A DNA stretch of 64,000 nucleotides, taken from assembly GCF_024502345.1 (NCBI RefSeq), contig NZ_JALDNN010000001.1; one strand, written 5' to 3'. The stretch is from Escherichia coli (lineage in GTDB: Bacteria; Pseudomonadota; Gammaproteobacteria; Enterobacterales; Enterobacteriaceae). A model generated the notes under the pieces. That model searched no databases, was not told the origin of the DNA, and worked only from the letters and a program-made list of their open reading frames with translations. Position 1 is the first letter of the stretch. Each line of letters starts with the position of its first letter. Of this stretch, positions 37,103 through 37,615 are shown piece by piece. Made by a program: the position numbers and the translations under genes.

Positions 37103-37615
37103 TTAGCTGAGGCGTTGAGGGCCAGCACGGATGCCTTGCGCCTGGCTTATCCAGACGGGCGTGCTGAATTTTGCTTGTGGGGTAAAATGCGCATAATCAA
37201 TGCGATAACCCTTTTCAGACGGCGTGCCTTCCTGGGTCAGCAGCGCGCTGAGCGTATCCAGTAATGCAAGATGTTGCGCCTGAAGAGGCAAAGATTCTTC
37301 AGCAACGGGCAGCGTTTGCGGTGCCATTGCGAAGGAAAGATGACGGATTACCGTGCGAATGGCATGTTGATGCCAGTAATCAACGGAATAGTTCGAATTC
37401 GGGCGGCGCGTGTTCGCTTCCAGCAAGGCCAATTGACCAAAGTTAACTTTGGCTGAAGGCTCGTGGTTGCGGGTTGTCGCTTTTGCGGGCGCGTTTGGTT
37501 CGGCGGCGTTGCTGAGCGCAGGCAAACCTAAACTCGCCGCGACCATCCCTAATAAGAGATGCGGCCAGAAGTAGCGTTTCCCAAACTGTCGCCAGCGCGT
37601 CAGTATTCCACTCAC
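37103..37615 (-). CDS. secM: Secretion monitor SecM (translation-arrest leader peptide, 170 aa)
   Basis: GTG start at 37615; C-terminal arrest motif [17 protein letters not shown]. Confidence 0.9.

Follow-up and report, generated by a model that had tools for sequence, protein, structure and literature searches.

An intact secM gene with a complete arrest motif lies upstream of secA in an Escherichia coli genome and carries the common Ser170 allele

SecM, the founding example among regulatory arrest peptides, is known in detail from genetics, biochemistry and a structure at 2.0 Å. Here, we asked whether a 64,000-nucleotide stretch of Escherichia coli DNA (the window) carries a secM gene equipped to monitor secretion on behalf of the neighbouring secA. 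In the published model, a stem-loop masks the secA Shine-Dalgarno (SD) sequence, ribosome stalling on secM unmasks it and pulling by the translocon releases the stall (PMC4737659, PMC10951299, PMC10987492), the sources cited there being McNicholas et al. 1997, Nakatogawa and Ito 2001/2002 and Butkus et al. 2003. The original prediction, made from the letters alone, had placed a GTG-initiated 170-aa secM ORF at positions 37103-37615, upstream of secA, and had named alignment with known SecM as a way to check it. The window comes from the E. coli chromosome: it aligns collinearly, in reverse orientation, with K-12 at ~81.3-138.5 kb (∼98-99% identity), and the gene order ftsA-ftsZ-lpxC-secM-secA-mutT is that of K-12. 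An 851-nt region covering secM was found in exactly one copy in 5,424 of the 5,426 complete E. coli genomes. Three of these 5,424 matches fall on records labelled as plasmids and two of the 5,426 genomes gave no match, which probably reflects replicon mislabelling or assembly issues.

The predicted ORF proved to be exact, and its strand, which had been left unstated, is minus: secM starts with GTG at 37615-37613, runs through 170 sense codons and ends with TAA at 37105-37103. Its product is identical to RefSeq WP_000014320.1, as annotated in E. coli PS10-3. The protein matched the Pfam SecM family PF06558 over profile positions 1-146 of 147 (E 4.2e-58; 195.9 bits, cutoff 25) and the NCBIfam equivalog NF002799, ‘secA translation cis-regulator SecM’, with 231.2 bits (cutoff 100). 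In contrast, it stayed below the cutoffs of the two SecM_small models, with 20.9 bits for PF10818 (cutoff 26.1) and 25.9 bits for NF038363 (cutoff 45). Alignment with known SecM, the check named at the outset, found residues 1-165 fully matched (100% identity) by the full-length nascent SecM of PDB 9VVI (chain 6; also 9XWO), structures that come from a study of YheS-mediated release (PMC13249984). Residues 132-165 were likewise 100% identical to chain 6 of PDB 8QOA, the SecM-stalled ribosome at 2.0 Å (PMC10951299), and a chain of PDB 3JBV provided a further identity match for the arrest motif. Because the best PDB SecM-chain match has an E value of 7.7e-110, with full identity over the first 165 residues, and is joined by the Pfam match, we judge the similarity to be far beyond chance. 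Family models and structurally characterized chains together confirm the identification as secM.

We then located the residues on which arrest depends. Codons 150-166 (37118-37168, minus strand) encode F150-S-T-P-V-W155-I156-S-Q-A-Q-G161-I162-R163-A-G165-P166, as read from the codon table and from the identity to the 8QOA, 9VVI and 3JBV chains; the F150 codon is at 37168-37166, that of Gly165 at 37123-37121 and that of Pro166 at 37120-37118. Four residues, Q-R-L-S, follow directly before the stop codon, which bears out the earlier description of an intact motif near the C terminus with only a few codons after it. In SecM, R163, G165 and P166 are essential for arrest and F150, W155, I156, G161 and I162 contribute to it (PMC4737659, PMC10951299), and in the stalled ribosome the Gly165 codon occupies the P site and the Pro166 codon the A site (PMC10951299). 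All eight of these residues are present in the window protein, and the claim that no essential residue is mutated holds, with R163, G165 and P166 in place. Elongation arrest and secretion-responsive induction of secA have been demonstrated experimentally for the K-12 sequence (PMC10951299, PMC4737659), to which the window SecM is identical through residue 169.

The N terminus carries the second element of the monitor, as the SecM signal sequence makes the protein a SecA substrate (PMC10951299). By composition and hydropathy, residues 1-37 (37505-37615, minus strand) have the features of a Sec signal: four K/R and no D/E within residues 1-17, and a hydrophobic core at approximately residues 19-33, with the top Kyte-Doolittle 11-mer of the whole protein starting at 20-21. 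The c-region that follows the core reads LSNA/AEP, and we take the exact cleavage site to be at this boundary. The segment is identical to that of K-12, and the N terminus appears signal-peptide-like, as the monitoring model requires.

The regulated gene is also where it had been predicted. The secA start codon, ATG at 37041, follows the secM stop codon at 37103 after 61 nt on the same (minus) strand, and secA (34336-37041) is intact, encoding 901 aa with all SecA Pfam domains and two substitutions relative to K-12, E550A and M700I. The 61-nt intergenic spacer (37042-37102, minus strand) is identical to that of K-12, as is the LpxC protein encoded upstream. A terminator-like hairpin followed by nine U residues lies 3′ of lpxC (37767-37819, minus strand; stem-loop 37776-37819, U9 37767-37775). 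Its folding energy was −23.8 kcal/mol (z −4.3), and none of 200 shuffled sequences folded as well; this hairpin bounds the secM-secA unit on its upstream side. A consensus terminator scan had missed this hairpin, whose loop is longer than 8 nt, and it was seen by eye and by folding. A simple scan found no sigma-70-like promoter for secM between the lpxC hairpin and the secM start. Across 36900-37900, the scans returned one promoter-like site (1.0 expected), which falls within the start region of secA, and two plus-strand terminator-like sites (1.4 expected); as these counts are close to expectation, we regard them as chance-level matches.

Two other readings of the ORF were weighed against that of an intact secM. 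A mechanical list of ORFs extends the secM frame upstream to a TTG at 37768, giving 221 aa, and the frame is indeed open from that position; if this longer form were the true ORF, its product would not be a normal secreted SecM. However, this TTG is part of the U-run belonging to the terminator-like hairpin of lpxC, and the signal sequence would be buried by the 51 residues added in front of it. The GTG is the start that RefSeq gives for K-12 (b0097, 513 nt) as well as for the nearest genome, and an SD-like element (GGGAUGG) is found 7 nt 5′ of it. In the NCBIfam equivalog match, residues 3-169 of the 170-aa protein cover profile positions 1-168 of 169, and the full-length SecM in PDB begins at the same residue as the GTG-started form. 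With the terminator U-run, the RefSeq start and the signal sequence all against it, the TTG-initiated reading was rejected, and we consider it extremely improbable. We give equally little credence to the idea that the motif is a chance match or a decayed, functionless remnant of a secM gene. The only fact related to it is that the 12-residue motif pattern arises by chance in four unrelated high-GC genomes out of 298 Gb of sequence, but those matches lack FxxxxWI, a downstream secA and a stop after four codons. At the present locus, the ORF is intact over its full length, all but one of the six secM differences from K-12 are synonymous, and synteny with secA is conserved, with the gene found in 5,424 of the 5,426 E. 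coli genomes. The family models, the PDB identity and the K-12 comparison refute the pseudogene reading. Overall, we are highly confident that the window gene is the chromosomal, intact E. coli secM, which in the secM-secA operon serves as the secretion monitor acting in cis and would work by the published mechanism.

The published model further requires a helix between the secM 3′ end and the secA SD that occludes the latter, and such a helix is predicted here. When the RNA spanning the 3′ end of secM and the start of secA was folded, the minimum free energy (MFE) and centroid structures both paired 37119-37106 with 37050-37063. The predicted 5′ arm, cCUCAACGCCUC.GC (37106-37119, minus strand), comprises secM codons 166-170, starting at the last two bases of the Pro166 codon and running through codon 170. 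The predicted 3′ arm, GCGGGGCG-U-UUGAG (37050-37063, minus strand), includes the secA SD, GAG, at 37052-37050, which is 8 nt 5′ of the secA ATG. Pairing probabilities were 0.66-1.0 within the 3′ arm and ∼1.0 for the SD bases, and the eight bases between this arm and the ATG were open, with a pairing probability of at most 0.27. A small alternative hairpin, CCGC-AAC-GCGG (37059-37069, minus strand), is in competition with the long helix for the upper two to four pairs; 18 Enterobacteriaceae sequences keep the stem of this hairpin but vary in its loop (CCGC-NNN-GCGG). The 146-nt junction fold gained no significant stability over shuffled sequence (z −1.3), and when the whole window was scanned with Rfam at gathering thresholds, no family covered the secM-secA junction.

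We also compared the junction across Enterobacteriaceae, in an alignment of 18 sequences comprising the window, K-12 and 16 other species (Escherichia, Citrobacter, Salmonella, Superficieibacter, Intestinirhabdus, Cedecea and an uncultured enterobacterium). The relatives were gathered with a DNA pattern that required exact QAQGIRAGP, which biases the sample towards close genera and imposes the conservation of these nine residues in all 16, hiding the motif's own variation. Outside them, F150, W155 and I156 were invariant in 16 of 16 relatives and positions 151-154 varied, matching the published FxxxxWI pattern. For the 13-pair helix, 97.4% of the cells across the 18 sequences held a standard pair, compared with 30-54% when the 3′ partners were slid by one to three columns. 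Eleven one-sided changes were seen, all of which keep a standard pair (10 of them as a G-U wobble), and there were no compensatory double changes among the 18 aligned sequences; shuffle controls of the covariation test were uninformative. As the arms are also constrained by PQRLS coding and by the SD, conservation of the helix alone is no proof of structure, and the comparative data are best described as consistent with it. One relative departs from the pattern: in Cedecea davisae (L020:8390-8485), SecM reads P-L-R-L-S after the arrest site instead of P-Q-R-L-S (Q167L). The underlying change of CAA to CUU breaks three lower helix pairs opposite the secA SD and is uncompensated, and the SD of this species may be masked differently or more weakly.

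Between the lpxC stop codon and position +41 of secA (845 nt), the window differed from K-12 by 11 SNPs and no indels. Six of the SNPs fall in secM; five are synonymous and the sixth, C to G at 37107, changes the last codon from ACC to AGC (T170S), four codons past the arrest site. The Ser allele was counted with a 66-nt stretch (37075-37140) that has the SNP at its centre and was matched at ≥99%, which amounts to an exact match. This stretch was present in 2,292 of 5,424 E. coli records, placing the Ser allele in at least 42% of them. Among the other Enterobacteriaceae, 15 of 16 proteins have ...RLS or ...CLS as their last residues, the remaining one has ...RLC, and Thr was seen in none. By these counts, Thr170 of K-12 appears to be the minority state and Ser170 the common one.

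As codon 170 lies within the predicted helix, T170S could be taken to alter regulation, with an SD helix up to two pairs longer and basal secA translation below that of K-12. Folding of a 96-nt junction gave an MFE of −15.4 kcal/mol for the window and −13.6 kcal/mol for K-12: the window structure extends the long helix by two pairs (G37107-C37062 and C37106-G37063) at the cost of the small CCGC/GCGG hairpin, which the K-12 structure uses. However, the two energies, which come from a nearest-neighbour prediction, are just 1.8 kcal/mol apart, and the SD is covered by the same nine core pairs in either allele. Residue 170 also lies past the arrest point and outside the published motif. Furthermore, with Ser170 common both in E. 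coli (at least 2,292 of 5,424 records) and among the other Enterobacteriaceae (15 of 16), K-12 is if anything the variant. An altered regulation in the window is, in our estimate, unlikely, and it is similarly doubtful that the codon-170 polymorphism would tune basal secA translation between E. coli lineages.

Returning to the reading of an ordinary working secM, the elements described above would act together as follows. secM and secA would be carried on one transcript, and in free mRNA secM codons 166-170 would pair with the bases immediately 5′ of secA, sequestering the SD and keeping SecA at a basal level. Once SecM has been made up to Gly165, the nascent FxxxxWIxxxxGIRAG would bind the exit tunnel and the peptidyl-transferase centre; with Pro166-tRNA occupying the A site, no peptide bond would be formed and the ribosome would stall. 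The predicted 5′ arm begins 4 nt past the first P-site base, inside the A-site codon, and a ribosome stalled there would cover it, freeing the secA SD for synthesis of SecA. The mRNA footprint of a ribosome usually extends roughly 12-15 nt 3′ of the P-site codon, from which we infer that it would cover 37119 to about 37108 and release the SD. Finally, the SecM signal sequence would engage SecA/SecYEG, and the force with which the nascent chain is pulled would end the arrest. Because pulling by the translocon releases the arrest, stall duration and SecA synthesis would rise when secretion capacity is low. The window itself contains the secM gene, the motif, the signal-peptide-like N terminus, the spacer, the predicted helix and an intact secA; stalling, the P- and A-site assignment, relief by pulling and unmasking of the SD come from published experiments on the identical sequence.

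Several further features of the window were recorded away from the secM-secA junction. A segment of ∼4.9 kb between pdhR and aroP (16385-21296) is missing from K-12 and holds an ORF on the minus strand (19025-20806; 593 aa) whose product joins an N-terminal Hcp domain to S-type pyocin and colicin/pyocin DNase domains. A near-identical E. coli genome has this Hcp fusion annotated as ‘TssD’, with three genes for a ‘bacteriocin immunity protein’ after it; the protein resembles a type VI secretion system effector in which Hcp is fused to a toxin, accompanied by an immunity array. A second segment missing from K-12 (∼2.5 kb, 22791-25302) lies between aroP and ampE and, by the annotation of the near-identical genome, contains genes on the plus strand for a GPH-family cation symporter (22916-24322) and a glycoside hydrolase of family 43 (24322-25272). 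Only 2 of 5,424 E. coli genomes cover at least 80% of window positions 16300-25400. Small intergenic length differences from K-12 were seen at 8639-8886 and 10520-10551, near yacH/lpd and aceF/lpd, one being a locally repeated match and the other ∼30 nt as against ∼148 nt in K-12. Such differences usually arise by gain or loss of REP-type repeat elements. The Rfam matches in the window, all at gathering level, were tp2 in the pdhR-aceE region (15272-15385, plus strand), the REP-derived naRNA4 3′ of mutT (33811-33887, minus strand), STnc40 overlapping the 3′ end of secA (34291-34360, minus strand), the leu operon leader (61578-61727, plus strand) and PssrA at the chromosomal ftsA/ftsZ junction (40007-40096, minus strand), an odd place for a family named ‘plasmid-encoded Shigella sRNA A’.

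The closest known system is SecM of K-12 (b0097; NP_414639.2 = WP_000014321.1), a long-type SecM at the same locus with the same length of 170 aa, GTG start and flanking genes. The two proteins share 169 of 170 residues, including the whole signal sequence and arrest motif, and differ by T170S, alongside the five synonymous SNPs; the window allele, WP_000014320.1, is widespread in E. coli. More distant are the SecM_small proteins of Pasteurellaceae (PF10818/NF038363; for example, Mannheimia succiniciproducens), which likewise act upstream of secA and are related in the signal-sequence region. The distance from signal to arrest site, which has a median of 131.5 residues in the long class of Enterobacterales and 71 in the short class (PMC10987492), is ∼129 residues in the window protein and fits the long class. 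VemP, MifM, the RAPP-type ApdA/ApdP and ApcA share with SecM the logic of arrest in an upstream ORF that is released by the monitored export machinery, but they are unrelated in sequence and have other motifs and other regulated genes (secDF2, yidC2). In these Sec- and YidC-monitoring substrates, too, arrest unmasks a downstream SD (PMC10987492).

Overall, secM of the window is an ordinary wild-type gene, a common E. coli allele of a system that is already known. The point of note concerns the reference strain: Thr170 of K-12 appears to be the minority state at the last codon of secM, inside the predicted regulatory helix. If, against our expectation, this codon did affect basal secA translation, the laboratory K-12 reference would carry a slightly weaker SD helix.
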